Shown piece after piece: positions 626-51,744 of a DNA stretch of 64,000 bases. The DNA is from Nemertoderma westbladi. Lineage: Eukaryota > Animalia > Xenacoelomorpha. The notes beneath the pieces were generated by a model. That model made no database searches. It saw nothing but the letters and a program-made list of their open reading frames with translations, and was not told where the DNA came from. Position 1 is the first letter of the stretch. Each line of letters begins with the position of its first letter. A program made the position numbers and the translations under genes. The stretch lies in NCBI GenBank assembly GCA_032718475.1, contig JAUCBJ010007426.1, forward strand, positions 62,001-126,000. Direction: 5' to 3'.

Positions 626-1778
626 TGTAAAAGCTTCTGTGGGATATAACTGGCCCTTTTGCTTCGCAATCCAGTTTCCCCCCTAGGCGCTGGAATACTC
701 TAAAAGGCTCTATAACTATATATATATTCCCCTCGCCCGCAAGGTACCGTTATAGGTGTTTTAACGGACATAAAAGTCATTCTGCTATATACGTGTTTTG
801 GCGGACATGGTAAGGCAAAAAACCTGCAATGCACCAAATACCTTTCACAGCTTAGCCGTGATGATTCATATTACGACATCTAACAGCTGGTTGCTGACAT
901 GGAAACAGCCATTGGCCACATGGTTCTTTGTTTAGCTTAAGCCAATCAGAGCGATTTTTTCTGTCGATGTGGAGCTTTTCGGCCGATCATACTAGAAATT
1001 ATAGAGCGTATAACTGTTATCAACTCACATATCTTATCTAATCATAACAACTGATCGCAATTCAGTTTTACATTATCGGTTCAATATACATTATTATACT
1101 GCTGTTTACTATTGTTTGGTTGAATATTATTTGGAGAACATTTATAAAGAACCCAAATTTCCCAATTTTCTTGATACACTACAGGTTAGAGAGGCGGGTT
1201 ATATATAGCGATTGCGATTTATATTATTGTGTATGTAGTGAATTTAATGCTATTTGATAAGCACTACATTGGTCCGTTGCTGTTCTCTTTATATATGATA
1301 AAAATCATTGACGGTCGGCAAATTAGTGAGCAGTATTGTATGTTACCGGTAGTGTGCATGATTGTGACTGATAACTAAGCATTTCCTAAAGAATGCGCCT
1401 CATACGTGAATCATAAGCCTTACCGACTTACCATTGTGATTAGTATAAGTCATATCTCTGTTTACCTAAATAGAGCGCCACGTCCTAAAGGAACTGTTAA
1501 TATTTCCCGAAAGTGAATAATATTAGTCAGAAATTAATTATTAACGATCAATCGAATAATACAGTACAGTAAGCTTACACTGCAATAATAATCTAAGCCC
1601 TCAGAATCCAGTCTCCCGGGAATATCCAGCGGGTGAATGGACGCGCACTAGGCTGGCTTCTGCTAATGTTGTGTTTATTGGTATTAAATATTTGTTATCT
1701 TCTAAAGTCTATTTATAAACCAAAAGACATATAAATTTTGGCAGGTTAAACTGCTAAAGGTCTTCAAAAGCGCGTACA
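626..1778 (+). repeat. E1 5' LTR
   Basis: TGTAAAAGC...GCGCGTACA. Near-identical to 16728-17880 (about 6 substitutions by eye). Confidence 0.97.
1010..1020 (+). promoter_or_regulatory. E1 putative self-primer motif ATAACTGTTAT
   Basis: Exact reverse complement of 1779-1789. A CCAAT box (GCCAATCAG, ~941-949) lies ~65 nt upstream. Confidence 0.75.
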
Positions 1779-1789
1779 ATAACAGTTAT
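1779..1789 (+). promoter_or_regulatory. E1 non-tRNA primer-binding site ATAACAGTTAT
   Basis: Abuts the 5' LTR end, has no TGG start, and is complementary to LTR 1010-1020. Confidence 0.75.
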
Positions 1790-2720: not shown

Positions 2721-4012
2721 GAGTTTATGCGATTATTCGCAACATTCATGTCCCCAAGTTTATTCCTACAGTAATTGTGTTTGTTATACATACCGTTATA
2801 GTTAAATTAACCCCGGTACTACACGGGCTGCTTGGCGTAGGAAAAGACTGGTGACTTTGTGCTCTGGTCACTCCAGCAGATGCCGTGGTTCTTTTAACTG
2901 TTCAAGTATATTTAACTACTGATTATTTGTTGTACCAGTACTTGTACCTAATTTAGGGTTTAGTGTACAGTGCTTCCCGAGGTAATTAGTGTGTAGGCAG
3001 TATATTTGTGTTGTAAAGTGGTTAATAGGCACGCTGGATCTGGTAGTCCGCGGTAATTAACTTCTAGGTAGGAACACTCCGTGATACATAACGTAGTACC
3101 TATAGCGATACGGTTATAGGTCGTCAGGCGGTGGTATTTTCCTATCTGGACAGTGCAATATATTTACTACTACTTATTATTTCAAATACCGTAGTACCCT
3201 GTCCGTTGTAATAACCAGAATTCTAACCCTTTGTTAGGCTGGTTTGTAGACTTCCTGTAAAATTACCCTAAAATTTCGTACATAATATTTTTGTTGTGTT
3301 TAATTAGAGAATTAATCTCACCCGTATCGTAATTTGTAGTATTAAGTAACTTAGGTAAATTAGAATTATCTGTTTTAGTGTCAAATAAATAGCACTTCAC
3401 TGAGAGCGCACAGCTTCTGTGTAGTGACTCCCCCAGAAATAATAATATTTATTTCAAATATTGACAAAACCCTTTTAAACGGGTATATATCTATTATAAA
3501 TCAACTCAAACGATTTATAAATAGTAGGCCTGCCATACAACAACTAGGTCTCAATATCAGTCAGTTGGACTACTGCTTAAATAACGGTAATAAAGTAAGT
3601 TAAAGTAACCAAGTAACCCTAAAAATATTCAGAAATTCAATTATTCTCAAATAATTGACATACCGGTATTTACCATAGGCTTATTATATTTATCTCTATA
3701 AATTTGTGCTGAAATCATACCGGTACTCTGTAATTAATTCTAGTTCATAATTATACTTATATATACTATCAGTGTAAGCTGTATACCGGTATTCACGATA
3801 GGCCTATTATATATTTATATATATTTGTGCTAAAATTATATACCAGTACTCTGTGACAAACCTAGTTTACAATACTTATATATACTATAAGTGTATACCG
3901 GTATTCTAATATACTGCAATAAATTACCGGTACTAGGCCAACGGTCATACTGAATTACTAGACTTGCTTTAACTGTAACTATAGCAGTAAGCATTCAACT
4001 GTATAGCTAAAC

Positions 4013-7000
4013 ATGTCTGACACTCAGCAAAACCTGTCAGACAGTCTAATCGATACAACCATCTGTGACACAGATAGGAGTGTGGAGCGATTAAGAAAGG
4101 AGTTCAGCTCACCTCCTACTGAAAGAAAGGTCATCCCTCCAGTAGAAGTATCAGACCCTAAGCTAATCCAACACCGTAGGTCTATCATCGGCACTAGGGC
4201 CCAAGTCAAACGGAACCAGGAAGCAGCTGTCCCACAGCAGCAACAGCCTAGTCAAGAAACTTGTTCCCAGCGATCCGATAGCTCCAGTAATTCGGATACT
4301 GTCGAGCTGACCCCCGAACGCGGATTGCAGATGGCGGCTAAAGCCTACTCGGACCCCCTTCTCACCCTTCCTGCCGCAGTGCTAACTACTATATTGATTG
4401 CGGTGGAGGAACATCAAGCCGATTGGGCGAGAAATAAGCGAGCGACCCAAGATAATTATGCGGGATACGCCATGGAAGAATTGATGTCTATTGTCGAGTC
4501 ACAATGGAACTTTCCCGGACCCGGACTCCCGTTAGATCTGTCCGAGGCTACTTGGGAAGATATACACAGGATGGGAGTGGCTAAAGATACGATGGATCCA
4601 GCTATTTGGAAGAGGTCGGCAGCAGGATATGTGCAGGGATTCTTCGGCTCCTTAGAGCGATTAGAAGAACAACTGTTTCGACAACCCCAAGGACCTCAAG
4701 AGCAGGAAGAACTGCTATATCAAGTACGCGAAAGAACCCTACGCATTCGAATAATCCTATCAGCTTTTGAGGAAACTTCCAAAAGAAGACAGGACACGTC
4801 GCTGCAGGTTGCTGTCAAAACTTGGTTCCAGCGGGTAGGTCTCAAAGTACAAAAAACAGACCAGTGGAAATCCCAGTTGTCTGAGAGACTAACCTATGAC
4901 GAACCAACCGATGTCACCCTTCCTCAAGTGGAAGGCGAAGAGACCGCAGAGAGACCACGAACGAGAGATGCCATCGACATATATCTGTCCGACTATCAGC
5001 GATTCCTAGGAGACGAAGAGTTGAGGAGACGGCTGTCTGGACTTTCCCCTAATAGTGAAGGAACCCAGCGTGTGTTAGACTCAATCGATGCTGAAATGTT
5101 AGCTGCTAACCAAGCTGAGTTTGATGAAAAACTCCGCCTCACTAGAGTCCAAGAAGAACTAGTAAAGAAAAAACGGATAGAGGACCGAAAGGCAGCTGCA
5201 GTAACAGCGGCAATGGCAGAAGTAGAAGCAGAAAGAAAGGCAGCGGCGGTAGAAGCAGAAGCAGAAAGAAAAGTAACAGCGGCAATGGCAGAAGTAGAAG
5301 CAGAAAGAAAGGCAGCGGCGGCAGAAGCAGAAGCAGAAAGAAAAGCAGCAAAGGCAGTAGCAGAAGCAGAACGGAGAGCGTCTGAGGAGACCACACAACT
5401 GGAGTTGGAAAATCTTCAAGAGACGCAAGACAACATAAATAAACAGTTAACTGCTAGTCACATGCAGATGATGAGAAGATCTACTCCCAAACGCCAGGGA
5501 TACACCTCATCAGAGGAAAGCGAAACCACCGATCCTGAAGGCGGAGGAAATAGATCTCGTCTAAGCAGGCGTAGAAAAACATCTCACCGTCACAAATTGC
5601 CTGATTTGCCCCCAGCGGTTAGAAGACAACTAGCTAGCCCAGACTTAGGTAGTATAGAACCTACAGACCAAATTATTAAGGTCAAAAGACTCCCTACAAT
5701 AGTTGATGAGCCTGAAATAATTGGGCCTGTCGTTCCCAAAGCCACTACTGTGCTAGAGACCCCTGTACTTCCAGAGCTTAACTCTAAATTCCCTTTACAC
5801 AGTACTACACTGCCTGTACCCGGTAGAACAGTCCATGAGAATATCCCTGTCCTGGAAGCTGAGAGAGAAATCAAAGATTTGTCTCCCGTCGTCCCACGTC
5901 AGCCCGCTACAATGTTGGCGACTCCCGCTTCGGCGGTCGAGTGGGTAGAGGAGGGACGGCGGGGGATGAATCTCCTGCTCGGACAGATGCAGGAGACTGT
6001 CTACCAACTTAAGGGAACAGTAAGGGAAGGTAGGGCAGAATTGCAAGAAGTGCAGCAAAGTATCGCGCTGGAACGCGACAAATTAGTCAATATACAAAAG
6101 GGTATACCAATACCCCCAGTAACATTGTGTCAACCTGTTAGGTCTGAAGTATTACATGCGCAAGGTGTGGAGCCTACACGCATCTATACTGCTAGTGAAG
6201 TAGAAACTCCTATAGCAAACCCTATTAAGGGTGATTATAAACCTGTTGTTAATGATATTCCCTATAGACCCGATAATGATCCGAGAAATTTATATACCGA
6301 TAATTCGATATTAAATAACACGATGGCCCAAGAAAGCTTTACGCGTCAGATGGCTAGAACAGAAGCCCGCCAAGCGGTCAAAGTGGGAGAGATCGTCAAA
6401 TTCAATGGAGATGAGATGAAATGGTTACCTTTCAACGAATATTACAAAGACAGTATACAGAACTCTGTGCTATCTAACGGAGAGAAACTTAGGTTCCTCA
6501 TCAAGTGTTTGGAAGGACCTCCCAAGTTAATGGCGTTAAAGTTTATTGGACATCCAGAAGGATTAAGACAAGTATGGGATACATTAAACATCAGGTATGG
6601 TAACAAGGATAACATAGCTAAGTATTTGTATGCAAAATTAGTAGCCCCCCGACACTTCCTTAGTAGCGGGATTATAGAGTTTTCCGATGAAATTCAGGAG
6701 ATCTGTAGACAATTGGACTGGTTAGGTAAGTCTCATGAACATCAGAGTTCCATGGTTATTGGAGCAGTAGTCTCTACTTTACCCAAGGGTGGAGTATGTA
6801 CACGTTGGGACAACAAAGTGTTGTACATGAATGAACAACAACGACGAAGCCCTACCATGACTGATCTCATGTCCTTCTTAGATGGTGAAGTAAAACTACA
6901 ACTCATCAAGCAGTCCAGAGAGAAAACATCGGAAAATAAGGTAAGTGAGAAACCCGCTTCTAGGAGAAGAGTAACACCGGTGTGTTACACTGACGACGGC

Positions 7001-7513
7001 GAAAGCCAAGCTTTTCAAGAAGAGGACAGCGGGAAAGACACTGAGAGATCTTACTACGTTGAAAAAACCTCAAAAGATGTAAGTAAATACAAGGCTCGAA
7101 ACAACGATAGGAGAGAACAGGTTGCCAAGACCCCTCCTCAGTCTCCTAACAGAATGCACCGAAGAAAACCCGAAGAAAAAACGAGAGTGCATCAAGTTAC
7201 CCAAGGTAAAGTGAGTAACATAAAACCTAACTGTGCGCTGTGCGACGGGACCCACCGTTTGAGTGCGTGTGCTGAATTTCTAAAGAAATCCCTTGTAGAC
7301 AGACGTGCAGTCGTGTGGGACAAGCGGTTATGCTATAATTGCCTCAGACCAGGACACCAACGGCGAACCTGTTACTCCGACATAAAGTGTGCAAAGTGTG
7401 GCGCGAAACATCACATCTTGTTACACAGTGAGTTCGAACGAGACAAACTGAGTCAGGTAAGTGAGCCCGAACTACATGTCCAATTCAGTGATGTAAACGA
7501 CACTGAACATTGA
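4013..7513 (+). CDS. gag: E1 Gag (BEL/Pao), cut off from pol by a deletion frameshift
   Basis: AEAERKA coiled-coil repeats, KFNGDEMKWLPF capsid-like region, and three Cys/His knuckles (CALCDGTHRLSAC, CYNCLRPGHQRRTC, CAKCGAKHHILLH) typical of BEL/Pao. Confidence 0.93.
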   Translation: MSDTQQNLSDSLIDTTICDTDRSVERLRKEFSSPPTERKVIPPVEVSDPKLIQHRRSIIGTRAQVKRNQEAAVPQQQQPSQETCSQRSDSSSNSDTVELTPERGLQMAAKAYSDPLLTLPAAVLTTILIAVEEHQADWARNKRATQDNYAGYAMEELMSIVESQWNFPGPGLPLDLSEATWEDIHRMGVAKDTMDPAIWKRSAAGYVQGFFGSLERLEEQLFRQPQGPQEQEELLYQVRERTLRIRIILSAFEETSKRRQDTSLQVAVKTWFQRVGLKVQKTDQWKSQLSERLTYDEPTDVTLPQVEGEETAERPRTRDAIDIYLSDYQRFLGDEELRRRLSGLSPNSEGTQRVLDSIDAEMLAANQAEFDEKLRLTRVQEELVKKKRIEDRKAAAVTAAMAEVEAERKAAAVEAEAERKVTAAMAEVEAERKAAAAEAEAERKAAKAVAEAERRASEETTQLELENLQETQDNINKQLTASHMQMMRRSTPKRQGYTSSEESETTDPEGGGNRSRLSRRRKTSHRHKLPDLPPAVRRQLASPDLGSIEPTDQIIKVKRLPTIVDEPEIIGPVVPKATTVLETPVLPELNSKFPLHSTTLPVPGRTVHENIPVLEAEREIKDLSPVVPRQPATMLATPASAVEWVEEGRRGMNLLLGQMQETVYQLKGTVREGRAELQEVQQSIALERDKLVNIQKGIPIPPVTLCQPVRSEVLHAQGVEPTRIYTASEVETPIANPIKGDYKPVVNDIPYRPDNDPRNLYTDNSILNNTMAQESFTRQMARTEARQAVKVGEIVKFNGDEMKWLPFNEYYKDSIQNSVLSNGEKLRFLIKCLEGPPKLMALKFIGHPEGLRQVWDTLNIRYGNKDNIAKYLYAKLVAPRHFLSSGIIEFSDEIQEICRQLDWLGKSHEHQSSMVIGAVVSTLPKGGVCTRWDNKVLYMNEQQRRSPTMTDLMSFLDGEVKLQLIKQSREKTSENKVSEKPASRRRVTPVCYTDDGESQAFQEEDSGKDTERSYYVEKTSKDVSKYKARNNDRREQVAKTPPQSPNRMHRRKPEEKTRVHQVTQGKVSNIKPNCALCDGTHRLSACAEFLKKSLVDRRAVVWDKRLCYNCLRPGHQRRTCYSDIKCAKCGAKHHILLHSEFERDKLSQVSEPELHVQFSDVNDTEH

Positions 7514-10017
7514 ACACTGAACCAACTTCCAACGTAGGAATCAGAGAATTTCCTGTAGTGCAGGTAAGAGTTCACGGTCTTAACAAAAGTTACATAGTGA
7601 ACGCCCTCCTTGACTCCGGCAGCACAGGAACATTCATCGATCAAGAACTAGCCGAAGATATCTTTGCTGGACAACCCAAGTTCCGGACTAAATTGAATAT
7701 GTCAGGAATTATGCAGGTTTGGAAATCTACCCTAACGGCAGATTACTATGTAGGTGTGTTGTCCACCCCCCAGGATAAGTTAGGAGCACAAGGTATAAGG
7801 TCGGTAAAAATGGTGGCTATAAAGAACTTCGCCACTACTCAAGCAGACCTTTATAATTGGGACGAGGATGAGAGCATCCAACATCTTAAGATACCTCGAT
7901 TCCAGACAGATTATCCTGGAGTGCAAATACTCATCGGCCAAAATGCGCACGAGGCGCTCGAAACATTAGAGAAACGGCCTGCTCAACCGCAGCCACTGCA
8001 AACCTATGCGGTAAGAACTAGAGTAGGTTGGTACTTTACTGGCCCTTCCCGCAGGACTCTCGAAGAGAGAAGGCCACAAGAACGAGTATACCAGGTGAGT
8101 GATTGGAGCGAGGAGAGCAGTGAGGTTGATGAACTAACTGAGGGAACACCATACTCCTCAGATAATGACGACATCTACCAACTCTTCGATGAAGAGAACA
8201 CAATCGACCTACTTACAGAAAACCAAACTTGGAAAAATCAGGTGAACCTATGTCAACTGATTCGCCCATCGGAACCCATCGCTTACAATGACGAACTAAA
8301 CGATGAGATAGAACGCTACAACGCTAGAACTCGGGACGAACTAGCCGTACGATTCTTTACTCAGGAACTGGTAGAGCCCAATTCATATGATAAGGCTCTA
8401 TCGATAGAAGAAGAAAGAGCCAAGCAAATCCAGGAAACAACTACACGTTTTTTAAAAGACCAAGGTAGGTATGAAATCGGCCTACCATTTCGAAAACGAG
8501 AACCTAGATTTATAAATAACAGACCCTTGGCAGAGAAAAGAATCGCTCAATTACATCGACGACTTACAGCTAATGCTGCAGCGAAAGAAATGTACCAAAC
8601 TCAGCTGAAGAAATTTATAACAAAGGGATACGCGGAGCGAGTACCGGAAGGAACACCAGTGACCGAGAGAACGTATTACTTAACACATCATTACGTTCCC
8701 AAACCCGGTAAACCCCATGAAGTACGAGTCGTATTCGATGGCTCTGCTCTATATATGGGCCAATCCCTCAATTCCGAGTTGTTACCAGGACCCAACTTAC
8801 TCCAATCTTTGTTGGGAATACTTTTGAGATTAAGACAATATTCCATCGCGTTCGCCTCCGATATAGAAGGAATGTTCTTACAAGTCAAGGCGCTGGATAG
8901 AGATAGAGACAGCCTGAGATTTCTGTGGTGGCCTGAAGGAGACCTCAATCAGAAACCGGTAGAATATTGGATGACCATCCAGGCTTTTGGAATCATATCA
9001 AGCCCTTCCAACGCCTGCTCCGTGGTGCGAACCACTGCGAATGACAACCGAGACTCCTTCTCAAAAGAAGTGATAGACAATATAAAACGCAATATATACA
9101 TGGACGACAATTTAAGGTCCCTTCCATCAGTAGAAGAAGCCAAAGCTGTCGCGAAAGGAACGGTAGAGTGTTTGAAGAGAGGTGGATTTCGACTGACGAA
9201 ATTCACTAGCAACTCCCGTGAGTTTCTGGAAGCCATACCGGTAGAAGACCGAGGAACGAAAGACCTAGACTTAATAAAGGACGATCTTCCTGAAACCAAG
9301 ACGCTAGGCTTGAAGTGGGACACTGAAAGAGACATCCTGTTTTTTCAGTTAAAACAGCGAGATAATCCAGTTCGGACCAAACGGATTTGTTTAAGCATCC
9401 TGAGCACTTATTTCGACCCATTGGGATTTATTAGCCCAGTTATATTGATTGCTCGGAGTTTAGTACAACAAATGTGGCTTGAAAACCACTCATGGGACGA
9501 TCCGCTTAAGGGAGAATTGTTAAAGACATGGATGAAATGGGAAGATTCTCTACCTGCCATCGAGAACTTTATAATTTCCCGTGCATATTTTGGCCATGTT
9601 CTTCCTACGTATTCCTATCAACTCCATGTGTTTGGAGATGCCAGCGACATGGGAATAGGTATAGTAGCATATCTGCGAGTCGAAACTCCGGATGGGATCA
9701 AAGTCGCCTTGGTTACCTCTAAGGCATTGATTAACAACAAGTTAAAGGTTCCTCGAGCGGAGTTAAAGGCAGCTTTATACGCTACAGCCATCGGCCGGAA
9801 CGTAACGGAACAAATCGACTATCCGCTGGAGAAAACGGTTTATTGGACCGACGCTTTACTCGTGTTGGAGTATCTAACCAATGAAGTCTGTCAGTTCAGC
9901 GTTTTAGTTACTAACCGAGTAGCTATTATTCTTAGTCGCACAAAGATAGATCAATGGAGACATTGCCCTGGTACGATTAATCCAGCCGATATCGCCTCCA
10001 GGGGAACAACTCCATAG
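7510..10017 (+). pseudogene. pol: E1 pol part 1: aspartic protease, RT, RNase H
   Basis: ALLDSGSTGTFI, FASDIEGMFLQV, YMDD, LHVFGDAS, VPRAELKAA. Ends at TAG where E2 has AAG. Confidence 0.93.
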
Positions 10018-11982
10018 GAACTGATAGATACTCCAGATTGGTTGGGTGGACCCGACTTCCTGAGCAAGGAAGAGGATGAATGGCCTCCTCACCTTACTAC
10101 GGCAGAGATTAGACAAGCCAAGGGAGCGGAGACAGTCAAACCTAAAACCCGGGCGAGTAAATCGAAGTTATTTAAACCGACTATCGATCTATCTGTATTA
10201 CATACTTCCGGGAATGATGCTTCGGATCCACAATCCCTCAACACAAATAAGTCTGTTGTGGAAATTAGAGATAGAGATTGGAAATCTGGAATACCAGACG
10301 TCTCGCAAGGAATCTCACCCATGCTGCAGAGAGCAATGCATCACTACAGTTCCTGGAATCGGCTCTGTAAAGCCGTCACATATTTAAGACGATGTTTTCA
10401 TCATCACTACTCCAGGACGAAGACCACTAGTGATACCGCTCCATTGACATCTGCACAAGTTCATGTTATTAAAAATTTACCCAAATATAAGACATCGGAT
10501 CGTTTTCTAAAGGAGAAAATTAGTCACCAGGAGCATGAAGAAACCAATAAGCAGATACTGAGACTCCTGCAATGCTATGAGGATTCCGAAAAGTATTTCC
10601 TGTTGTTGAGAAATCCGCAGATGCGCTTAAGGGATCGATTCTCGAGCACAATGATAGATGGGCTAATACGTGTTGGAGGAAGACTCACCAATGCGCCCTT
10701 ATCCTTTGACACTAAATTCCCCATACTCATTAGAAATCTTGAAGTACAAATCAAGATGATTGTAGATGTTCACAGCAAACTTTATCATGCTGGTAGAGAA
10801 CGAGTTCTTAGCGAAATTCGAACTCGCTATTATTTTGATAAACCCCGTAGAGCTCTGAACCAAGTTCTTAGGAACTGCATACCCTGTAGGAAAGCATTCA
10901 GTAGGCCTTTAACACAGCGAGAGGCAGAATTACCTAGGGAACGAGTAAGCTTCTATGAACCACCTTTTACTAATACTGGTGTAGATTTATTTGGCCCTAT
11001 TGAAGTATATCGTGCTAGGACTATAGTCAAGAGATGGTGTGTCATCTTCGTATGCATGACTTGTAGAGCCATCCATCTCGATATGGTGAACGATCTATCT
11101 ACCAACAGCTTCGTCTTAAGTTTACGCCGACAGATCGCTCGCTTCGGGACGAGTAATACCATGAGATCGGATAAGGGAACGAACTTCATTGGTGCCAACA
11201 ACGAAATACAGGCTTACGTGAAGGACTGGAACCAAAGACAGGTGGACGATCAGCTAAGGATAACAGCGTCTAGCTGGACCTTCAACGCCGCCGACGCCCC
11301 TTGGTGGGGAGGAAGTTGGGAGAGATTAATTAGAAGTGTCAAGACCGCATTTCACTTTATAGTGCCATGCCGCGCGTATCTCACCGACGAACTTTTGCGG
11401 ACGTTAATGGAGGAAATAGCTGCCTATCTCAACGAGAGACCGCTTATGCCAGTCTCATTGAGTCCCGATTCCCTGGAAGCGCTAACACCCGCGCACTTCC
11501 TACTGAAGAAACCTGTAGCCATGCTCCCACGATCGGAGATTACCGACGGAGACGAATACTGCCGTCGAACTTGGCAACTTATGCAGTTGCTATCCCGTCG
11601 TTTCGCTGACCATTTCGAGAAACATTATCTGCCCACGCTACAACTTCGAACTAAGTGGTTTGCGCAGCAAGAAAACGTCAGCGCCGGAGATATGGTGCTT
11701 ATTGTAGATCCAGACCTCCCACGTAAACGGTGGCAGACAGGTCGTATCATCGAGACTCACATCTCGGATGATGGTTTAGTACGCTCAGTAGAACTTGTCG
11801 TCATGCGGCGTAACTTCAAGAAGCCAGGCATAATCTTTGAGACGCAACAACTCAATCGCCCAGTTGGTCGTTTATGTTTACTGGAAAGAGACAGAGAACT
11901 CTCTGGAAACTATGGAAGGCAAGACACTCTTCCCACGACCACCTCCCTAATTCCTCAAACATCTAGGGACTCCCCAACGTGA
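10018..11982 (+). pseudogene. pol: E1 pol part 2: integrase (same frame, after the premature stop)
   Basis: HSKLYH...CIPC zinc-binding motif, GVDLFGP, SDKGTNF, WERLI (DDE core). Collinear with the E2 ORF. Confidence 0.93.
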
Positions 11983-13608
11983 TACGTCTGGAGTGGGTGT
12001 ATGACTATATTGTTTTATCTATTTTATTATATTTTTATATGCGAACTTTATTATGTACTTTATTATAATCGTTTTTATTCAATTTTATTTAGTAAAATGT
12101 TATTTTAGTGATTATTTAGTAGATTAGTGCAATATATTAGTGTTTATTACGTACGTAATTACTTATAATATATATTTAGTGCGACGGCGAGAAATAATTT
12201 TTTCTCTTTCCTTACTGTCCGTATCATATTATAAATACGTGACTACAGTAAGATGAAATGTCCGTACTTATTAAAGTACAATAAAGCTCCTACTATACTT
12301 AAGTATTATTGGTAGGCAGAGTATTAGGAATGCAAAGTTCAGATCCTCGTGTCTCGGCTAAACCAAGCTCTGGGTAGACCTTGGAAACGACTTGCCTCTT
12401 CACACTGACATTGCTTCGTGCGATATTGCTCTTCTACCTTATATTAAATAATACATATAGTAGCGTGATGTCCATATAACAGTAGCGTAAAACGCAAATA
12501 AATCTGTTAAACCCTTTGACCATCTGTAATTCTAGTCGATTAAGATATCGTGGCACCCACCGATATACTTGAAAGACAAATTCTAGAATCAATGGTTAAC
12601 GTCTCCAGACAAGTTCTGGAATAAATCGGTGCCCATCTTAAATATTAATTTAATATTTATTCAAATCTGTAAAATTCAGATCCTTTAAAATTTCTAGTCA
12701 ATTAAGATATCGCAGCACTTACCGATACTCTTAAAAGACAATTTTATAGAATTAAGGATCCTCAGTCCCCAGACATGCTCTGGAATAAAAATTGTGTCAA
12801 TTTTAACATCAAATAATAAAATTCACGGGAATAGATTTAAATTCATATTTTAAATGAATTTCATAAATTGTCATTTTGTGCAATTTATAACATTCCCAAA
12901 ATTCCATTAATTAATAGATCATGGGAGCGGAGATTCATCCTATTGAGTGTATTAGAGTGCGAGAATCTCCAACATATAGTCAATAGCCGATAAAATTAAT
13001 AAAATCATGCATAAAGAGGATATTGACAATTAAAGAATTATTATTAAATAGCATCCCAGATCTGTATGCATGAGAATTACCCTAATTCTACCGCTAGCAT
13101 TCCATAATGTCACCATAGCAACACCCACGCTAGAATTAGAAGCAAGTTAAGAGAACAATAGAAAGCTTGTCCCATTGCATAGCATAGAGAATACATAACA
13201 CACTGTTAGTATCCAAGGATACACAGTAATAACGTGACATTCTGGAATGCACTGACTAACGGACAAATGGCCTGTATGTGTACAATTGGTGACAGTTGTG
13301 TGGAATTTGTGCGTTTATAGGTGAATGTTACTGCTAAAGTATGTTTACAGTAGCTAGTCGCAATTGTGAAAGTAGCCCAACTCTCCTATAGAAAGAACCT
13401 AAAGTGGATTCAAGCCTTTGGGACGGACAGTGGAGTGACTTGTGCCGGTTATCGTTGTCGTGCTGTTGCTACATGTTGGCGTAAACACTGCGACGACGGT
13501 ACATCGGCGCTGAGAATCCCACTGTCCGGGGGCAAAGAGAGGTAGGCAGCGACGTCCGCTCGCCTAAACATAAACTCATTTCGATATTAATAAACTCAGA
13601 TAGCAGAT

Positions 13609-13986
13609 ATGACGGAGTTGATAGAAGATGATCTTGGTATCAGGGAGCGATATACTCTACCTTTACAAGCATTTGTGGATAGCTTGATACGCGGTGAAAC
13701 CGATCCAACCATTACGGAGGACGATGGTCGTTATATCGAGCCGCCGATGTCCCAAGAGCAACTTACGCGTGAATTGGACTATCGAAAATTCACCGCTCGC
13801 TATACGCATCGTAATAGTACGTATATGGACTTCCTAACTACCGGCCATCCTAGCGATTTGCATGATACGGACGATGTAGATACAGAGAGGGAAATGGTTC
13901 TATTTAAATATCATACCCAGCGGAGTCGTAACGATAAACCGAGAATGGAACACGAGAATTCTATTCGAAAACAACTCGAAAGATAG
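13609..13986 (+). pseudogene. E1 accessory ORF, N-terminal part (MTELIEDD...), truncated
   Basis: Homologous to E2 28624-27794 and E3 59679-60077. A TAG replaces Glu (E1 ER*NVEE vs E2 EREDVEE). Confidence 0.8.
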
Positions 13987-14873
13987 AATGTGGAAGAAAG
14001 CTTGTAAAGACAAATAGAGGAGAACACTGGAGAAGAGACATGGGTTAATGTCCAGGGTCCATGATGTGAATAGTTTTTCCCCGGGGCACGGGTGCTCGCG
14101 GGCAGTCTCCTTCGGGAGGCTGTAATTTCTCTTCCTTCATCGTTTTCCTGTAATTATTGTGATCAGTGTCACAATTAAAGGGCAAGAATGAATGATGATG
14201 TGACGGAAACATGTCCATTGTGGTATCTTATGGATACTACCATATATCCTCCCTCCTCTTTACTCCCTTTATCCCTCTATACATCGCTATTGAAAATACA
14301 ACATACTTCGTCCCACCTTCTCTTCCCAATGTGCTCGGAGCTTTGGGAGACGATCGACCAATCATTGCCGTATCGTGGTATGGATCATACCGCCTCCTAA
14401 TAAATCCCCCCACCCCTTACTGTTTATTTGTATGCTCATATTGGTGTCCGCACCTCTCGTCCATGTAACATTCCACATTCTGTTGATATTTATGATATCA
14501 ACTTCCACCCTCGCGTTGTTGATTAGAAAATCAACCACCAATAATTTCCTTAAGTCCGCAACCGTGATACAAACAAGGACTGAAAGGACACGAGGATAGT
14601 TTGTGAACAACTGGTACCATTATGTGTCATAAATCTGGTTGTTCACCTCCCTCAATGATTGGAGATATAAATCTTATGTAGAACAACTGAGACAAACATA
14701 TCCTTGAACGGGTATTTACCTCCTCGCTAGGGATAAATTCATTTAGAGATCGTCTTCGAACGATTGAATCTTCCTACTGAAGTCGTATTTCTGAATATTT
14801 CTGAATACGATATAAGTCTTCCTCTGCTCTCGATCATCAATGGCGGAAAACATATTAGTCATCCTAGGGGAAC

Positions 14874-16649
14874 ATGGAGAACATTCCATACCCTCTCGTT
14901 GATACTCAGCTGATTGCTCCCTGGGCAGAAGGTCGAGGTTTCTTCCGCACTATGTATGCTAATACGCCTAGCAACATTACCAAGGTGCAACGAACTTCCA
15001 TCGGACATCTTGCCTTTCAGGAATACGGATGGAATTTCAAAGTCGGAAATCCCATTAACTATCAACAAGTATACGGAGATCATTATTCTCGATTGTACTT
15101 TGATGGACCATTAACTGCACCTGGCGCCGTGTATAGCTTCATGAGTGTTCCACTCCGTCCCTCCTTAGCTATATACACGATCTTTGAAAACAGCGCACTT
15201 GCCGGTTGGCTAGCCGATGTGTGCAGTCGTACTATACGCGCCCATCCATTAATACTTGGGACCAAACTCGCTAAGCTAGATGAACATAATAAATTCATCC
15301 GTTTCGAATGTTTCCGGCGATTTTTAACCCCGTTCCGCAACGTGGATAGCCAATTTAAAGACTGCGCTTTGACCAAACTCAGCCTAAGAAACTCAGCTGC
15401 AGAGAAGTTGGATAGCGCTGGATTCGCCATTTTCAAAGAGATTTGTATATCGAACTTGCACTCCTCTGTTATACAAAGACCTCGAATCCCCACAGGTTAT
15501 TCTGTCGTGGAAATTCAGACAATAGGTCCACCTGAAGAGACAGACGCACCCACTTCAGCTATGCACTTGGAAGACGAACCAATATGTCTAGAATCTGAAG
15601 AGATTCAGCCTATCGCGCCCCGGAACAGCGACAACGATTACATCATAGAATGGTATCAAGGTCCACAGTGTCTCACTGCGTACGATTATCGACATGCCAA
15701 CTATGTTTCTAGGCAACGTTGTCGGTTATGCGCATTGAGAGACCACGATACGCCCATGGACACCAACGTCCGCTGTTCCTATTTCCAAGAACAACCGACT
15801 ATGGAAATTTATTGCGCATATTGCAGACTCAATAACTTGCATATCTTTGCGGTTTGCCCTCAATTTATGACTCAATGTCACCATTGTCAACTAAAGGGAC
15901 ATGCTAGTTTCGACTGCCCTTTTAATCACGATTTGGAAAGCGTAGATGAAATGATCACACTACGATACATCAGAGCTTGGGAAGCGAACGCTGATTTACA
16001 TTGTGATTCGCGCCATCGCTATTATCCCGGACGCGCTTATGAAGGAGTTTATGCGTTCCATCCTTATCTATTCGCTTCGGTTGAACAGAAATCACGCATA
16101 TCAAGTTACGAGCTACTGAAGCGTGTTGGAGAATGTATTTCAACCAAATTCGTACGCAAATTTCTCAGAAATGTTAATCCTAGCGACCTTCATTCCTATA
16201 ACTTAATCAATTATATCCGTCAGGATCCGGACTATGGAGACTTGTTTGTTAACTCACACCCCGAGTTACAGGAAGTATATCGACGGCCTTACGAATACCG
16301 AGCCCGCGAACGCGAGTTGGAAAGGACCATTAAACCCCGGAGGTTTCTAACTGCCTATGGTCCACCCACGGCCCTCGTTCAGACCACTCGTAAAGGACCC
16401 GTAAGAGCGGCTGTCTTGAAACGAGCTCTCAAAGCCGTTAGACCCCTCTCCCCGGACGTTGATGTCAATCAACCCGGTACTTCGACTGGCGGATACACCG
16501 ACCATAATCCTACACCCTCTGATGCAATCATATTGCACCCTTCACCCAGGAGTTATAGCCCTCCTTGTAAAGTGGCTCGCCCCAAAGAGAAAAGGACTCT
16601 GGCTAGCTTTAAGAAACTGCGTAAACGCCATCCGCGCAAGAAAGACTAA
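14874..16649 (+). CDS. E1 accessory ORF, C-terminal part: Cys/His zinc-knuckle-like protein with basic tail
   Basis: 591-aa ORF with CRLC..H..C, CAYC..H..C and CHHCQLKGHASFDC, ending KKLRKRHPRKKD. Remnants in E2 (27100-27260) and E3 (60048-60168). Confidence 0.8.
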   Translation: MENIPYPLVDTQLIAPWAEGRGFFRTMYANTPSNITKVQRTSIGHLAFQEYGWNFKVGNPINYQQVYGDHYSRLYFDGPLTAPGAVYSFMSVPLRPSLAIYTIFENSALAGWLADVCSRTIRAHPLILGTKLAKLDEHNKFIRFECFRRFLTPFRNVDSQFKDCALTKLSLRNSAAEKLDSAGFAIFKEICISNLHSSVIQRPRIPTGYSVVEIQTIGPPEETDAPTSAMHLEDEPICLESEEIQPIAPRNSDNDYIIEWYQGPQCLTAYDYRHANYVSRQRCRLCALRDHDTPMDTNVRCSYFQEQPTMEIYCAYCRLNNLHIFAVCPQFMTQCHHCQLKGHASFDCPFNHDLESVDEMITLRYIRAWEANADLHCDSRHRYYPGRAYEGVYAFHPYLFASVEQKSRISSYELLKRVGECISTKFVRKFLRNVNPSDLHSYNLINYIRQDPDYGDLFVNSHPELQEVYRRPYEYRARERELERTIKPRRFLTAYGPPTALVQTTRKGPVRAAVLKRALKAVRPLSPDVDVNQPGTSTGGYTDHNPTPSDAIILHPSPRSYSPPCKVARPKEKRTLASFKKLRKRHPRKKD

Positions 16650-16719
16650 CTGTTTAGAGTATTTACGTATATTAGAAACTGTGATTTTGTATATTTTATA
16701 GACTCAAATCCCATTTTCT

Positions 16720-16727
16720 GGGAGCGG
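16720..16727 (+). promoter_or_regulatory. E1 polypurine tract (short, GGGAGCGG)
   Basis: Directly precedes the 3' LTR. Identical in E2 (27019-27026, minus strand). Confidence 0.7.
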
Positions 16728-17880
16728 TGTAAAAGCTTCTGTAGGATATAACTCGCCCTTTTGCTTCGCAATCCAGTTTCCCCCCTAGGCGCTGGAATAC
16801 TCTAAAAGGCTCTATAACTATATATATATTCCCCTCGCCCGCAAGGTACCGTTATAGGTGTTTTAACGGACATAAAAGTCATTCTGCTATATACGTGTTT
16901 TGGCGGACATGGTAAGGCAAAAAACCTGCAATGCACCAAATACCTTTCACAGCTTAGCCGTGATGATTCATATTACGACATCTAACAGCTGGTTGCTGAC
17001 ATGGAAACAGCCATTGGCCACATGGTTCTTTGTTTAGCTTAAGCCAATCAGAGCGATTTTTTCTGTCGATGTGGAGCTTTTCGGCCGATCATACTAGAAA
17101 TTATAGAGCGTATAACTGTTATCAACTCACATATCTTATCTAATCATAACAACTGATTGCAATTCAGTTTTACATTATCGGTTCAATATACATTATTATA
17201 CTGCTGTTTACTATTGTTTGGTTGAATATTATTTGGAGAACATTTATAAAGAACCCAAATTTCCCAATTTTCTTGATACACTACAGGTTAGAGAGGCGGG
17301 TTATATATAGCGATTGCGACTTATATTATTGTGTATGTAGTGATTTTAATGCTATTTGATAAGCACTACATTGGTCCGTTGCTGTTCTCTTTATATATGA
17401 TAAAAATCATTGACGGTCGGCAAATTAGTGAGCAGTATTGTATGTTACCGGTAGTGTGCATGATTGTGACTGATAACTAAGCATTTCCTAAAGAATGCGC
17501 CTCATACGTGAATCATAAGCCTTACCGACTTACCGTTGTGATTAGTATAAGTCATATCTCTGTTTACCTAAATAGAGCGCCACGTCCTAAAGGAACTGTT
17601 AATATTTCCCGAAAGTGAATAATATTAGTCAGAAATTAATTATTAACGATCAATCGAATAATACAGTACAGTAAGCTTACACTGCAATAATAATCTAAGC
17701 CCTCAGAATCCAGTCTCCCGGGAATATCCAGCGGGTGAATGGACGCGCACTAGGCTGGCTTCTGCTAATGTTGTGTTTATTGGTATTAAATATTTGTTAT
17801 CTTCTAAAGTCTATTTATAAACCAAAAGACATATAAATTTTGGCAGGTTAAACTGCTAAAGGTCTTCAAAAGCGCGTACA
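16728..17880 (+). repeat. E1 3' LTR
   Basis: Direct repeat of 626-1778, followed by TSD CACAC. Confidence 0.97.
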
Positions 17881-20659: not shown

Positions 20660-21244
20660 TGTGACGGGATCAAGCGATCCCGACCGGGTTATGTTGTACT
20701 CGTCACAGCAGGCCGATGGGAAAACGTTTGAGTTCGATGTTCCTTCGTTCCGATATATATAATAATATGCGTAGTGATAGCACAGTAAAATGATACGACT
20801 GGTAATAGCGATATAATATGACAGCATATAACAGCACTGTGATGACGGTAAGACAATAATGCCGGTCTGCACGGAAACTGACAATTTGGTAACTGAATAA
20901 TAAATCAGTATGTATGGGATAATATATGTGTGATTACTTCACCCATACATTACTTTGGCCTCCTACCTAGTGGATGCTCTCCTTCGCCCCTATTGGCTAA
21001 TAACCTACTTCACGCCTTTCCACTCTCTGGGAGTGTTTCCCCCATGTTGCTAGCCCCATGTTGCTAGCTCCGAGGTGGTTTGACTTATAACCTCCCTTTG
21101 TGTGTGGCTTCGGGGTTTGTACTGTCCCCGATGTTGGTTGTGATACGAGATTAGTTACTGCTAATCTCGTATCTCCAACATATTGCTGAAAATGCCACTA
21201 TCCCATTTTATGAGGGTAATGAGGCGGAATTGAATCCGCTTACA
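20660..21244 (-). repeat. E4 3' LTR (585 bp)
   Basis: Direct repeat of 46369-46959 with about a dozen differences. Preceded on the minus strand by a poly-G PPT (21245-21258). Confidence 0.95.
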
Positions 21245-25861: not shown

Positions 25862-27018
25862 TGTTCGCGCTTTCAGACCTTTGGCAGTTTAACCCGCCAA
25901 ATTATGATGTCTTCTAGATAATAAATCACTTTTAGCCTATGACAAGTATTTAATTCACTACACTAGTCGAAACCAATCTGTGCGCGATCATTCACCCGCT
26001 GTATATACCCGGGAGATTGGGTTCGACGGCTTAATCTTATTGCTATGTAAGCCTAATGTATTATTCGACTGACAGTATTATATAATCTCTGACAATATTA
26101 TTCACCTTCGGGGAATATTAACAGTTCCTTTAGGACGTGGCGCTCTATCTATACAAACAGAGTTATGACTTAAACTACTCACAACGATATGGCTTAGTTA
26201 TAATTCACATATATGGCGCATTCTTTAGGAAATGCTTCGTTATCAGGCTCACTCATACACAATGCTGCACAATACTGCACACTGATCTGCCGATCTTCAC
26301 TGATTTTAGTTATATATAAAAGGAACACGGACCGACTCATGTAGGGTCTATCAAATAACATTAGATTCACTTCAAACCACTTTAACATAAGTCACAATCG
26401 TTATATGTAACCTTTCTCTCTTACCTTCGGTATATCAAGAATATTGGGTTTCGGGGTTATTTATCGTTATTCCAAATATAATAATTCATCAACCATATTA
26501 TGAAGAACTGACAGTAAATAGCAGTATAACAATATAAAAGTATGCACAGTGATTCAGTGTGGATTGTTTGGTTTGTTTTGCAATGGTTTGATAACGGATA
26601 TATGCCCTTTATAATTAAGCCTACTAGTGTTAGACTAAAACAGAAAAGCACAAAATATTTACAAGCCGTTCTCTCCTGGCTCAGGACAGAAAGACCAACA
26701 ACACTGAAAACTGATAAGAATAACCTTATTTACAAAGGCTTCCACCCAACACAGAGAAAGAGCATACAGATAGGAAAATTCAGTTCAGTAGATCTGTGAT
26801 AGGTCGAAATCAAAATCAACTCAAATCCTATTGGGAGATACTTTCCCAAGCTGGTTGGACAATCAAACGTAGCCCAGATCCCTTCGCACAGCAAATCAGC
26901 CAATCAGCCGGTAGCTTGCACTATTCGAGTTATAGATCCCCTTTTAGAGTATTCTAGCGCTTGGGGGGGAACTGTTTAGCAAGGCAAACAAATCAGTTAT
27001 CCCACAAAAGCTTTTACA
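25862..27018 (-). repeat. E2 3' LTR
   Basis: Direct repeat of 40610-41766. Confidence 0.97.
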
Positions 27019-27793
27019 CCGCTCCCAGAAAATGGGATTTAAGTCTATAAAATATACAAAATCACAATTTCTAATATACATAAATACTCTAAACAGTTAG
27101 TCTTTCTTACGCAGACGGCGTTTACGCAGTTTTTTGAGGCTAGCAAGAGTCCTTTTCTCTTTGGGGGGAGCCACTTTACTAGGAGGGCTATAAATCCTGG
27201 GTGAAGGGTGCAATATGATTGCATCAGAAGGTGTAGGATTATGGTCGGGGTATCCGCCGTTTCGATATGCTTCTCCTCGAGCTGATTTTCCTCCGCTCGT
27301 AGCTGGATACGTTCATCCAAAAACTCTCGCAGAGAATGGGGTTGTCTAAGTGCGATATCTTCTTAGAGATTCTGGATTTCACAATCGAACTGAGATAAAG
27401 ACAATTCGTTTATCGCTTGGACTTGCTGTTACAACTTACGTTTATCTGAACAAACGTAGGTTTCCTTTCTGATCTTTGTAGAATAGCGTTTAACTCGTTT
27501 AGTACAACGTTCTCCGCCACTCTGGTGACAGGTTATATCGTGTCAAGCCGGGATGATGGTAAGGGTTAAACGGCGATATTAAATGTCCGCGTCCCAATCC
27601 GGCTAGGTAGGATGGGCTAATATCTAAGAAACCCACAACTGGGGTGCCACCGACTAATCGTTCAGGTAACACTAGATCTTTGAGCAGTGAGTACAGCTAG
27701 GGAGGATCCGTCATACTAATAGGATCAAGAGTCTGAGGCCTCACTAGGGAATGAGGAGCTCTGATCGAGTATTCCGAAACTCTGATCATTGGT

Positions 27794-28624
27794 TTATTTA
27801 AGGATCGTCTGAGTCGAACGAGCGTAGGTGATACATTGAACAAACAAGTTTCGCTCGAAACTCCCGTAAGTATAGCGAGTAAAACCGTGTTTAAAGCAAC
27901 GTCTCCGCGGATGTTTATGTCTTTCCGTTTGTTGGTTGGGTCTTGGGCATTCATCGCAATAATACCCAAAAACGTACGTCTTGTAGGGGAAACGCGAGTG
28001 ATCTTTCTCCAGCTTACAATATTCCTCCATCCGTTCGAAGCTATTCGGTACAACAGGTAGCGGTCGATCGGCGGTAAGATACATCATAGGGGAATCGAGC
28101 CGTTTGAGTTCTACCATGCAGTCATGATGTATACCTTGAGGATATCGAGTTTCTAGATTTTGTTGACTGGCAATATTGAGATATGTTTCTATCAGGAATT
28201 CCAGATAATCGTTGAAGTCGCTGCGTTTATCCGGCTCCTCAACGTCTTCTCTTTCGATTCGGTTTCGCATAGAATTCTCATGTTCGATTCTCGGTTTATT
28301 GTTCCGCCTCCGCTGGGTATGATATTTAAATAGAACCATTTCCCTTTTGGTGTCTATATCGTTCATATCGTGTAAATCGATAGGATGACCAGTAGTTAAG
28401 AAGGCCATATACGTACCATTACGCTGCGTATATCGAGCAGCGAATTTTCTATAGTCCAACTCGCGCGCGAGCTGCTCTTGGGACATTGGCGGTTCGATAT
28501 AACGACCATCGTCCTCCGCAGCAGTTAGACTAACGTCGCCGCGTATTAAGCTATCAACAAACGCTTGTAAAAGTAGAGTATATCGCTCCCCGATACCAAG
28601 AACATCTTCTATCAACTCCGTCAT
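27794..28624 (-). CDS. E2 accessory ORF (MTELIEDV..., 276 aa), with degenerate continuation to ~27100
   Basis: Homologous N-terminus to the E1 and E3 accessory ORFs. Contains YCDEC...H...C. The downstream remnant rejoins the E1 ORF tail near 27260. Confidence 0.78.
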   Translation of the reverse strand: MTELIEDVLGIGERYTLLLQAFVDSLIRGDVSLTAAEDDGRYIEPPMSQEQLARELDYRKFAARYTQRNGTYMAFLTTGHPIDLHDMNDIDTKREMVLFKYHTQRRRNNKPRIEHENSMRNRIEREDVEEPDKRSDFNDYLEFLIETYLNIASQQNLETRYPQGIHHDCMVELKRLDSPMMYLTADRPLPVVPNSFERMEEYCKLEKDHSRFPYKTYVFGYYCDECPRPNQQTERHKHPRRRCFKHGFTRYTYGSFERNLFVQCITYARSTQTILK

Positions 28625-30271
28625 ATCTGCTATATATGAGTTTGTCCATATTATAATGAGTTTATATTTAGGCGAGCGGGCGTCGCTGCCTACCCTTCTT
28701 TGCCCCCCGGACAGTGCGAGATCCTCAGCGCCGATGTGTCGCCGCCGATGTACTTTCGCCAACGACGTAGCCGCACAACGACAACGACAACCGGCACAAG
28801 TCACTCGACTGTCCGTCCCAAAGGCTTAGATGTACTTCAGGTTTTCCTTGGAGAGTTAGGTTACTTTCACGATTGCGACTAGCTACTGTAAACACACTTT
28901 AGCAGTAACATTCACCTATAAACTCACAAATACCACACAACTGGTCACAACTACGCACATTCGGGTCATTTGTCCGTTAGTCAATGCCTTCCAGAATGTC
29001 ACTGTATTATTATGTATCCTTGGATACTAGTAGTGCGCTATTTATTCCCTATGCTATTCAATGGGACAAGCTTTCTATTGTTCTTTTAACTCAATTCTAA
29101 TTCTAGCGTGGTTGTTGCTATGGTGACATTATGCAAAGCTAGCGGTAGAATTAGGGTAATTCCAATGCATACAGATCTGGGATGTTATTTAATAGTATTC
29201 TTTAATAGTCAATGTTCTGTTTTATACATGACTTTATGAATTTTATCGGCTATTGACTATGTTTGGGAGACTTTCGCACACTCATATGCATAATAAGATA
29301 AATCTCCGCTCCCTTGACCTATTAATTAATGGAATTTTGGGAATGTTATAAATTGCGCAAAAAATGGCAATTTATTAAATTCATTAAAAGGCATGAATTT
29401 AAATTATTCCCTGAAATTTTATTATTTACTAATTAGATGGACATATTTTGATTCTAGAATATGTCTGGGGACACAAGATCCTTAATTCTATGACAATTGT
29501 CTTTTTAAGAATATCGGTAAATGCTACGATATCTTAATTGACTAGAATTGTTGAAGGATCTGAATTTTACAGATTTTGATTTATTAGATTTGCAAATATT
29601 AAATAATTAATATTTGAGATGGGCACCGATTTATTCCAGAACTTGTCCGGGGACGTTAACCACTGATTCTAGAATTTGTCTTTCAAGTATATCGGTGGGT
29701 GCCGCGATATCTTAATCGACTAGAATTACAGATGGTCAAAGGGTTTAACAGATTTATTTTGCGTTATACGCTACTGTTAAAGGGACATCACGCTACTATA
29801 TGTATTATTTAATATACGGTATGAGAGCAATATCGCACGAAGCAATGTCAGTGTGAAGAGGCAAGTCGTTTCCAAGGTCTACCCAGAGCTTGGTTTAGCC
29901 GAGACACGAGGATCTGAACTTTGCATTCCTAATACTCTGCCTACCAATAATACTTAAATATAGTAGTGGCTTTATTGTACTTTAATAAGTACGGACATTT
30001 CATCTTACTGTAGTTACGTACTTATAATATAATACGGACAGTAAGGAAAGAGAAAAAGAATTATTTCTCGCCGTCGCACTAAATATAATATAAGTAATTA
30101 CGTACGCAATGAACACGAACATATTGCACTATTCTACTAAATAATCACTAAATAATATTCTACTAAATTAAATAAAACGATTATAATAAAATTACATAAT
30201 AATACATACATAAATATAAAAATAATAAAATAATATAAAATAATAGAGTCACACGCCCACTCCGAACGATA

Positions 30272-40598: not shown

Positions 40599-40609
40599 AT
40601 ATCCGTTAT
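40599..40609 (-). promoter_or_regulatory. E2 non-tRNA PBS ATAACGGATAT
   Basis: Abuts the 5' LTR. Reverse complement of the LTR motif ATATCCGTTAT (41339-41349, minus strand). Confidence 0.78.
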
Positions 40610-41766
40610 TGTTCGCGCTTTCAGACCTTTGGCAGTTTAACCCGCCAAATTATGATGTCTTCTAGATAATAAATCACTTTTAGCCTATGACAAGTATTTA
40701 ATTCACTACACTAGTCGAAACCAATCTGTGCGCGATCATTCACCCGCTGGATATACCCGGGAGATTGGGTTCGACGGCTTAATCTTATTGCTATGTAAGC
40801 CTAATGTATTATTCGACTGACAGTATTATATAATCTCTGACAATATTATTCACCTTCGGGGAATATTAACAGTTCCTTTAGGACGTGGCGCTCTATCTAT
40901 ACAAACAGAGTTATGACTTAAACTACTCACAACGATATGGCTTAGTTATAATTCACATATATGGCGCATTCTTTAGGAAATGCTTCGTTATCAGGCTCAC
41001 TCATACACAATGCTGCACAATACTGCACACTGATCTGCCGATCTTCACTGATTTTAGTTATATATAAAAGGAACACGGACCGACTCATGTAGGGTCTATC
41101 AAATAACATTAGATTCACTTCAAACCACTTTAACATAAGTCACAATCGTTATATGTAACCTTTCTCTCTTACCTTCGGTATATCAAGAATATTGGGTTTC
41201 GGGGTTATTTATCGTTATTCCAAATATAATAATTCATCAACCATATTATGAAGAACTGACAGTAAATAGCAGTATAACAATATAAAAGTATGCACAGTGA
41301 TTCAGTGTGGATTGTTTGGTTTGTTTTGCAATGGTTTGATAACGGATATATGCCCTTTATAATTAAGCCTACTAGTGTTAGACTAAAACAGAAAAGCACA
41401 AAATATTTACAAGCCGTTCTCTCCTGGCTCAGGACAGAAAGACCAACAACACTGAAAACTGATAAGAATAACCTTATTTACAAAGGCTTCCACCCAACGC
41501 AGAGAAAGAGCATACAGATAGGAAAATTCAGTTCAGTAGATCTGTGATAGGTCGAAATCAAAATCAACTCAAATCCTATTGGGAGATACTTTCCCAAGCT
41601 GGTTGGACAATCAAACGTAGCCCAGATCCCTTCGCACAGCAAATCAGCCAATCAGCCGGTAGCTTGCACTATTCGAGTTATAGATCCCCTTTTAGAGTAT
41701 TCTAGCGCTTGGGGGGGAACTGTTTAGCAAGGCAAACGAATCAGTTATCCCACAAAAGCTTTTACA
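40610..41766 (-). repeat. E2 5' LTR
   Basis: TGTAAAAGCTTTTGTGG...GCGCGAACA on the minus strand. Confidence 0.97.
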
Positions 41767-46357: not shown

Positions 46358-46368
46358 TATTGTCTTAC
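46358..46368 (-). promoter_or_regulatory. E4 non-tRNA PBS GTAAGACAATA
   Basis: Abuts the 5' LTR. Reverse complement of the LTR motif TATTGTCTTAC (46557-46567, minus strand). Confidence 0.78.
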
Positions 46369-51731: not shown

Positions 51732-51744
51732 GTAACAGTTTATA
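51732..51744 (+). promoter_or_regulatory. E3 non-tRNA PBS GTAACAGTTTATA
   Basis: Complementary to the LTR motif TATAAACTGTTAT (50985-50997), with 12 Watson-Crick pairs and a terminal G:U. Confidence 0.75.

Follow-up and report, generated by a model that had tools for sequence, protein, structure and literature searches.

Self-complementary primer-binding sites in two BEL/Pao families of Nemertoderma westbladi suggest priming by the elements' own RNA

In a stretch of 64,000 nucleotides of the Nemertoderma westbladi genome (GenBank assembly GCA_032718475.1, contig JAUCBJ010007426.1, positions 62,001 to 126,000, here called the window), all four elements examined, which belong to two distant BEL/Pao families, carry from the first base after the 5' LTR a short sequence complementary to a motif in their own LTR. 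Judged from the sequences compared, this signature is real, specific to each copy and part of a wider pattern among relatives. Its most probable reading, to which we give a probability of roughly 70%, is that reverse transcription is primed independently of tRNA by the element's own RNA acting in cis; if priming in trans by such an RNA is also counted, an element-derived primer becomes highly probable. A preliminary description of this DNA had proposed self-priming for the first of the two families, and at sequence level that proposal is well supported by the recurrence of the signature in the second family, by a predicted Tf1-like topology and by a split among relatives between TGG-starting and self-matching sites, while the mechanism is our interpretation of these patterns.

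BEL/Pao elements in the window

Family A is present in the window as three copies, E1, E2 and E3, and the distantly related family B as a single copy, the pol of which is interrupted by E2; this nested insertion spans 20660-46959. LTR ends were set by LTR pairs together with 5-bp target-site duplications (TSDs). E1, on the plus strand, has a 5' LTR of 1153 nt with TG..CA ends (626-1778), a 3' LTR (16728-17880) just preceded by a short purine tract, and the TSD CACAC. E2, on the minus strand, has a 5' LTR of 1157 nt (40610-41766), a 3' LTR (25862-27018) and the TSD AACGG. Since the LTR pairs differ at only 6 of 1153 nt in E1 and 3 of 1157 nt in E2, both insertions are young. E3, on the plus strand, has a 5' LTR of 1190 nt (50542-51731) and the TSD CTGAT, located via a duplicated LTR end at 61668; its 3' end (60177-61668) begins with an LTR truncated by 556 nt at its start (60177-60810), continues with about 780 nt of inserted sequence and closes with the duplicated LTR end, after which comes the TSD. 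This insert, within 60811-61668, is flanked by two copies of the E3 LTR end that are identical over their 42 terminal nt, opens with tandem repeats of about 30 nt, and may be a rolling-circle or other non-autonomous element. The family B LTRs, on the minus strand (5' LTR of 591 nt at 46369-46959; 3' LTR at 20660-21244; TSD AGTAC), differ by 16 mismatches and 10 gap columns.

All copies are broken. The E1 gag-pol (4007-11982, plus strand) is split into three, the gag of E2 is interrupted close to its start, most of pol is missing from E3, and family B is fragmented. An open frame of 2125 codons in E2 (30272-36649, minus strand) covers the gag part, protease, RT, RNase H and integrase. Pfam recognises DUF1759, Peptidase_A17, Integrase_H2C2 and DUF5641 in family A, all of them in E1, and DUF1759, an aspartyl protease and Peptidase_A17 in family B, the RT/RNase H piece of which is 36% identical to that of E2. 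Traits of Belpaoviridae found here are a Pao-type polyprotein in PR-RT-RH-IN order, LTR lengths within 0.2-1.2 kb, target duplication and a purine tract before the 3' LTR; a chromodomain, the criterion for Ty3/gypsy chromoviruses, had no Pfam match among 14 ORFs. E1 measures 17.3 kb and E2 15.9 kb, with 3-5 kb separating pol from the 3' LTR (11983-16727 in E1; 27019-30271 in E2), and a Cys/His-rich ORF of 591 aa in E1 (14874-16649) gave no match in Pfam or Atlas.

Some further features were observed. The 5' leader of family A has a 288-nt tandem duplication (2143-2722, with homologues in E2 and E3) and its gag has Ala/Glu-rich repeats (about 5190-5390). An open frame of 441 codons without a Pfam match lies between family B and E3 (48895-50220), and an array of C2H2 zinc fingers on the minus strand (62553-63725), built of 84-nt repeats, is probably a host gene exon.

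Self-complementary sites after the 5' LTRs

All six motifs of E1-E3 were recovered where the preliminary description had placed them. In E1 the primer-binding site (PBS) at 1779-1789 is matched by an exact reverse complement, the candidate self-primer, at 1010-1020. In E2 (minus strand) the 11 nt directly after the 5' LTR (40599-40609) are the exact complement of 41339-41349, and two substitutions relative to E1 are mirrored in the PBS. In E3 the PBS comprises the 13 nt directly after the 5' LTR (51732-51744) and pairs with 50985-50997 through 12 Watson-Crick pairs and a terminal G.U. The pairing thus covers 11, 11 and 13 nt in E1, E2 and E3 and starts at base +1 after the terminal CA, leaving no spacer. 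As had been claimed, no TGG-type tRNA site is present: the first TGG lies at +268 in E1, +241 in E2 and +179 in E3, and a search of the window against Rfam and tRNA models found no match. The absence of an 18-nt tRNA PBS marks a variant of Belpaoviridae and is not grounds for exclusion, since membership rests on the pol domains.

Two statements about these motifs need qualification. The two substitutions and one insertion are indeed found in both partners, but the first pair of E3 is G.U, so that this change is unmirrored; and the homologous position of the motif in the three LTRs rests on short local anchors only, MAFFT having left the E1 motif unaligned with those of E2 and E3. The 60 nt on each side of the motif are 48-62% identical between copies. 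In general the E1 LTR is far more diverged from those of E2 and E3 upstream of and around the motif (726-1009) than in its last 600 nt, a distribution that resembles the mosaic U3 pattern outlined for Tf1/Tf2 and Tosmo elements in excerpts of PMC10085805. A spliced 16-bp extension of the E3 match was rejected because its splice sites are non-canonical.

An exact complement arose in 3 (E1), 5 (E2) and 2 (E3) of 3000 Markov-shuffled LTRs, and across the window such a match occurs at 20 of 2215 sites following any ACA, or about 1 in 100, a figure in which the true sites are counted. The E1 site is a near-palindrome and therefore weak evidence on its own. Duplex energy is lowest for the cognate motif and PBS in each of the four elements; within family A the values are -10.1, -12.0 and -12.6 kcal/mol for cognate duplexes, while cross pairs lie between -2.4 and -8.7. 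Once an 11-mer carries two changes, the probability is about 1 in 500 that two changes in its partner would by chance lie opposite them with the bases needed for pairing, and the co-variation among these three related copies amounts to about three independent change events. In the contigs of an independent run, X1, the E1 LTR-PBS junction is unchanged over 1745-1822, which excludes an assembly error at that point; PBS variants in the same run comprise one that is E3-like and one with a T-to-C change at 1787 (depth 3.55), possibly an error.

Beyond family A, to which the preliminary description had been confined, family B repeats the 11-nt self-complementary signature. Its PBS (46358-46368, minus strand) likewise has no spacer and no TGG, and its exact 11-nt complement lies at 46557-46567 (minus strand), a match that appeared in 0 of 3000 shuffles; the complement is also found in the 3' LTR (20848-20858). 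The first TGG is at +153, and in all four elements the 150 nt next to the LTR end are free of TGG.

Comparison with BEL/Pao relatives

A protein search gave 235 matches, of which the 120 listed are 31-42% identical, and an alignment of E2 with 38 relatives was used to fetch 70 metagenome loci and 39 loci from a genome collection. In 22 relatives the LTR end was fixed by two LTR copies (10 of 54 loci examined in one set and 12 of 30 in another); left out of this set were L007, whose LTR end had been placed from the match itself, and L091 and L109, whose repeats are not LTR-like. The sample is biased toward kin of family A.

In nine of the 22 a site beginning with TGG follows the LTR at a distance of 0-5 nt, and in none of these nine was a self-match found, while 11 of the 13 non-TGG relatives match themselves over 10-15 nt. 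One of the 11 is L075, where the 11-nt match is contiguous, the two LTRs are identical and a TSD is present. The other ten (L001, L009, L019, L024, L033, L034, L076, L079, L081 and L100) yield their 10-15 nt match only once a GT..AG intron of 67-480 nt within the LTR is taken out, with donors of GTAAG or GTGAG type where printed or checked; in shuffled controls such matches arose in 0 of 40, 0 of 30 or 0 of 10 trials, and for L079 in 2 of 30. The two remaining non-TGG relatives, L084 and L106, gave no clean self-match. When LTR ends were withheld, a blind splice test recovered the true end in all six splice-type metagenome loci and returned further matches in loci without a fixed LTR end. Between L076 (1000-1790) and L079 (1000-1880) the upstream exon ends in CAC or TAA and the PBS has GTG or TTA, two changes that are mirrored across the predicted splice junction. 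A complement made only by splicing must act in RNA, which argues against explanations at the DNA level.

Among ten relatives tested for contiguous matches, L007 alone was positive, a result counted against self-priming before splice junctions were tested, and a blind scan for contiguous matches in 54 loci returned mostly chance matches; a contiguous 10-mer in L015 was discarded as it rested on a wrongly placed LTR end. In IMG/VR, 0 of 111 candidates were relatives.

On trees, which hold unnamed loci only, the self-matching trait is clustered (0 of 500 shuffles), and the split between TGG-type and self-matching loci has an SH-aLRT support of 92 in a quick tree, and its support is 67/69 in a careful one. 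In the careful tree family A forms a long branch outside a well-supported self-matching group of 17 rows and family B a very long branch; this split support and these branches do not establish a single origin of self-matching.

Several of these loci come from records of prokaryotes. A record of 1.44 Mb that is titled as a Wolbachia chromosome contains two BEL/Pao elements with LTR pairs and TGG-type sites, L090 (7559-13538) and L107 (7608-13668), the latter with a 5-bp TSD and LTRs that are identical; their presence there could reflect a misassembly, Wolbachia DNA copied into a nuclear genome, or a genuine insertion. More generally, the 39 BEL/Pao-like pol loci from the prokaryote genome collection (L071-L109), most of them in MAG records, probably represent animal DNA that was binned together with symbionts; one of them, L081, has an LTR pair and a TSD and lies in a contig of 1.42 Mb.

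Predicted structure and transcription start

The terminal 9 nt of the family A LTRs can pair at 8 of 9 positions with a segment 130-142 nt before the LTR end (E1 1638-1646; E2 40730-40738, minus strand; E3 51592-51600; each within the 5' LTR), and within this predicted inner arm one pair is swapped, from A-U in E1 (1641/1775) to U-A in E2 and E3. In the minimum-energy folds of all three copies the inner arm is formed with the PBS kept open. For a predicted outer arm, the sequence following the PBS pairs best in all three copies with a segment 192-214 nt before the LTR end; in E1 the segment 1580-1588, complementary to 1795-1803, is the best-ranked partner of this flank. Both arms are the top-ranked partners at homologous places in three of three copies. 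By energy they are no better than arms in shuffled LTRs (17, 5, 5 and 1 of 60 for the inner arm; 4, 12, 23 and 33 of 60 for the outer). The outer arm is weak in family B, and in E1 it competes with an 11-bp hairpin after the PBS (1791-1817, -12.3 kcal/mol, retained in E2 and E3), which outcompetes it in E1 and E2. Tf1 requires a three-duplex "pretzel" in which the PBS is nested between two helices, as set out in excerpts of PMC10085805, and the nesting predicted for family A has this topology, though it is not significant on energy alone.

Transcription start sites can be suggested from promoter-like motifs. In family B a TATA-like and an initiator-like motif lie 32 nt apart upstream of the primer motif (46600-46635, minus strand); judged by their consensus, and presuming that such motifs function here, they would predict a start about 36 nt upstream of the primer motif. 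In family A TATA-like hexamers fall in or just before the motif (at -12 in E2 and 0 in E3) and initiator-like TCAGTY downstream of it (+52, +90 and +79 in E1-E3), none of either kind at a conserved place; if used, they would put the start past the motif. In the splice-type relatives the upstream exon contributes no more than 3-9 of the paired nt, which makes a longer 5' extension likely. The motif, placed by the preliminary description at or near the transcript 5' end, does not have to form the first bases of the element RNA. Self-primed Tf2 mostly initiates downstream of its primer (excerpts of PMC5341516), and a downstream start in bulk RNA would for this reason not be decisive against self-priming.

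Discussion

We propose that transcription starts at or upstream of the motif, that the LTR motif in the element RNA folds back to pair with the 11-13 nt immediately following the 5' LTR, and that helices on both sides may keep this site open, as in the Tf1 pretzel. A cut at the 3' edge of the motif, presumably made by the element's RNase H by analogy with Tf1, would then provide the starting end for minus-strand DNA, giving strong-stop products of about 758 nt in E1, 729 nt in E2, 734 nt in E3 and 188 nt in family B. Plus-strand synthesis would copy the primer into the new PBS, and motif and site could stay matched without second-site mutations. The preliminary description had called the co-variation compensatory; the changes are mirrored, but since plus-strand synthesis copies the primer into the PBS they may simply be templated. 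The unconverted G.U of E3 is a small point against strict templating.

The primer is contiguous in families A and B, whereas most of the relatives tested would need an LTR intron to be spliced. We lean slightly towards a broader scenario in which much of BEL/Pao gave up tRNA priming, most members splicing out an LTR intron to build a self-primer of 11-15 nt, which would tie the start of reverse transcription to host splicing; families A and B would then be an intron-free form with a primer that is internal and not at the cap, and with processing unlike that of Tf1.

An element-derived primer could also act in trans, supplied by a second RNA packaged alongside, by a short transcript of the LTR or by a small RNA derived from it, which accounts for the complement and its co-variation equally well. 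It would easily explain how the intron of splice-type elements is removed for the primer yet kept in both LTRs, and the 730-760 nt loop of family A is long. Against this, the predicted flanking helices are arranged as in systems that prime in cis, and strict copy specificity among the co-resident E1, E2 and E3 fits a source in cis, or in the same particle, better than a shared pool; we consider a trans primer unlikely.

Quite improbable is a reading in which the pairing is a structural or regulatory switch, in packaging, dimerisation or translation, and the primer is some host RNA such as a tRNA fragment. The competing hairpin after the PBS would suit such a switch, BEL/Pao is tRNA-primed in the ICTV profile (PMC8742986), and half-tRNA primers without a TGG are known in copia, as noted in excerpts of PMC6317226. 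One host RNA, however, cannot pair well with all three family A sites, given the gap between cross-pair and cognate energies; the pairing begins exactly where the 3' end of a primer must define the LTR end, and it is absent from all nine TGG-type relatives.

The motif might instead be a promoter element upstream of the start, never present in the 5' RNA, whose match is kept by an event at the DNA level such as fold-back of cDNA ends or conversion. The first bases of the E3 motif are indeed TATAAA, and E1-E3 have initiator-like motifs 52-90 nt further downstream; the motifs of E2 and family B are not TATA-like, and ten relatives possess the complement only in RNA from which the intron has been removed, which makes this account very improbable. 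Chance, or an assembly artefact in an AT-rich repeat, could draw on the background of about 1 in 100 matching sites and on the near-palindrome of E1, and is largely refuted by the presence of the signature in four of four elements, its rarity in shuffles (0-5 of 3000), the mirrored changes and the unchanged junction in run X1.

To our knowledge, proof of self-priming is limited to Tf1-type elements, with a prediction for one copia lineage. Some Cer elements of C. elegans have been proposed to encode their own primer RNA, a proposal for which the open full-text literature yielded no paper. In Tf1 the RNA's first 11 bases anneal to the PBS, and cleavage by RNase H falls between bases 11 and 12 (excerpts of PMC7175516). 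Self-priming is described for Tf1/sushi elements and predicted for Tcn1 and the copia TAR lineage in excerpts of PMC6317226, PMC4600332 and PMC2864245. With Tf1/Tf2 of S. pombe, Tj1, Tosmo1-3 and the Tf1/sushi and Tcn1 chromoviruses, families A and B share the lack of a tRNA site and the approximately 11 nt directly after the LTR that are complementary to their own LTR, and the two further duplexes that Tf1-type elements form between PBS-adjacent sequence and LTR have predicted counterparts in family A (excerpts of PMC7175516, PMC10085805 and PMC4600332). Unlike these Ty3/gypsy elements, the families described here have BEL/Pao domains and no chromodomain match; primer and PBS are 730-760 nt apart in family A, and the relatives form the primer at a splice junction. 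The Tf1 primer is the start of the RNA, whereas the place of the primer in families A and B is read from sequence. On present evidence they would work like Tf1, yet they are not members of Tf1/sushi. Outside Tf1/sushi, self-priming has likewise been predicted from sequence for the TAR lineage of Ty1/copia (Houba, Osr-1; excerpts of PMC6317226), which is a plant copia lineage with another pol order and no close RT relation to families A and B.

Like canonical Belpaoviridae (Semotivirus; Tas, Achilles), families A and B have DUF1759, Peptidase_A17, integrase and DUF5641 domains, TG..CA LTRs, a 5-bp TSD and a short purine tract. The ICTV profile agrees with the preliminary description that BEL/Pao elements are described as tRNA-primed, giving an 18-nt PBS for host tRNA and genomes of 4-10 kb, while calling BEL/Pao replication poorly understood (PMC8742986); Achilles, for example, has a tRNA-Tyr site (excerpts of PMC4580426). 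The elements of the window differ in having no tRNA site and, for E1 and E2, in exceeding this size range. No report of a self-primed BEL/Pao element was found in the open full-text literature, though Repbase, GyDB, subscription journals or supplements may hold one; the words primer, PBS, tRNA and self do not occur in a BEL/Pao survey (PMC3118150), nor do PBS, tRNA, self and priming in the paper on Sinbad (PMC554778).

Conclusions

The signature yields exact predictions for each copy, namely the primer sequence, the cut site and the length of strong-stop DNA. BEL/Pao is one of the three large superfamilies of LTR retrotransposons, and if self-priming holds, the definition of the BEL/Pao family would change and annotation tools based on tRNA sites would miss many elements. 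Such elements may also lie beyond control by host tRNA fragments that act at the PBS. Self-priming would then be present in all three LTR-retrotransposon superfamilies, and whether it is ancestral or was invented repeatedly would become testable.
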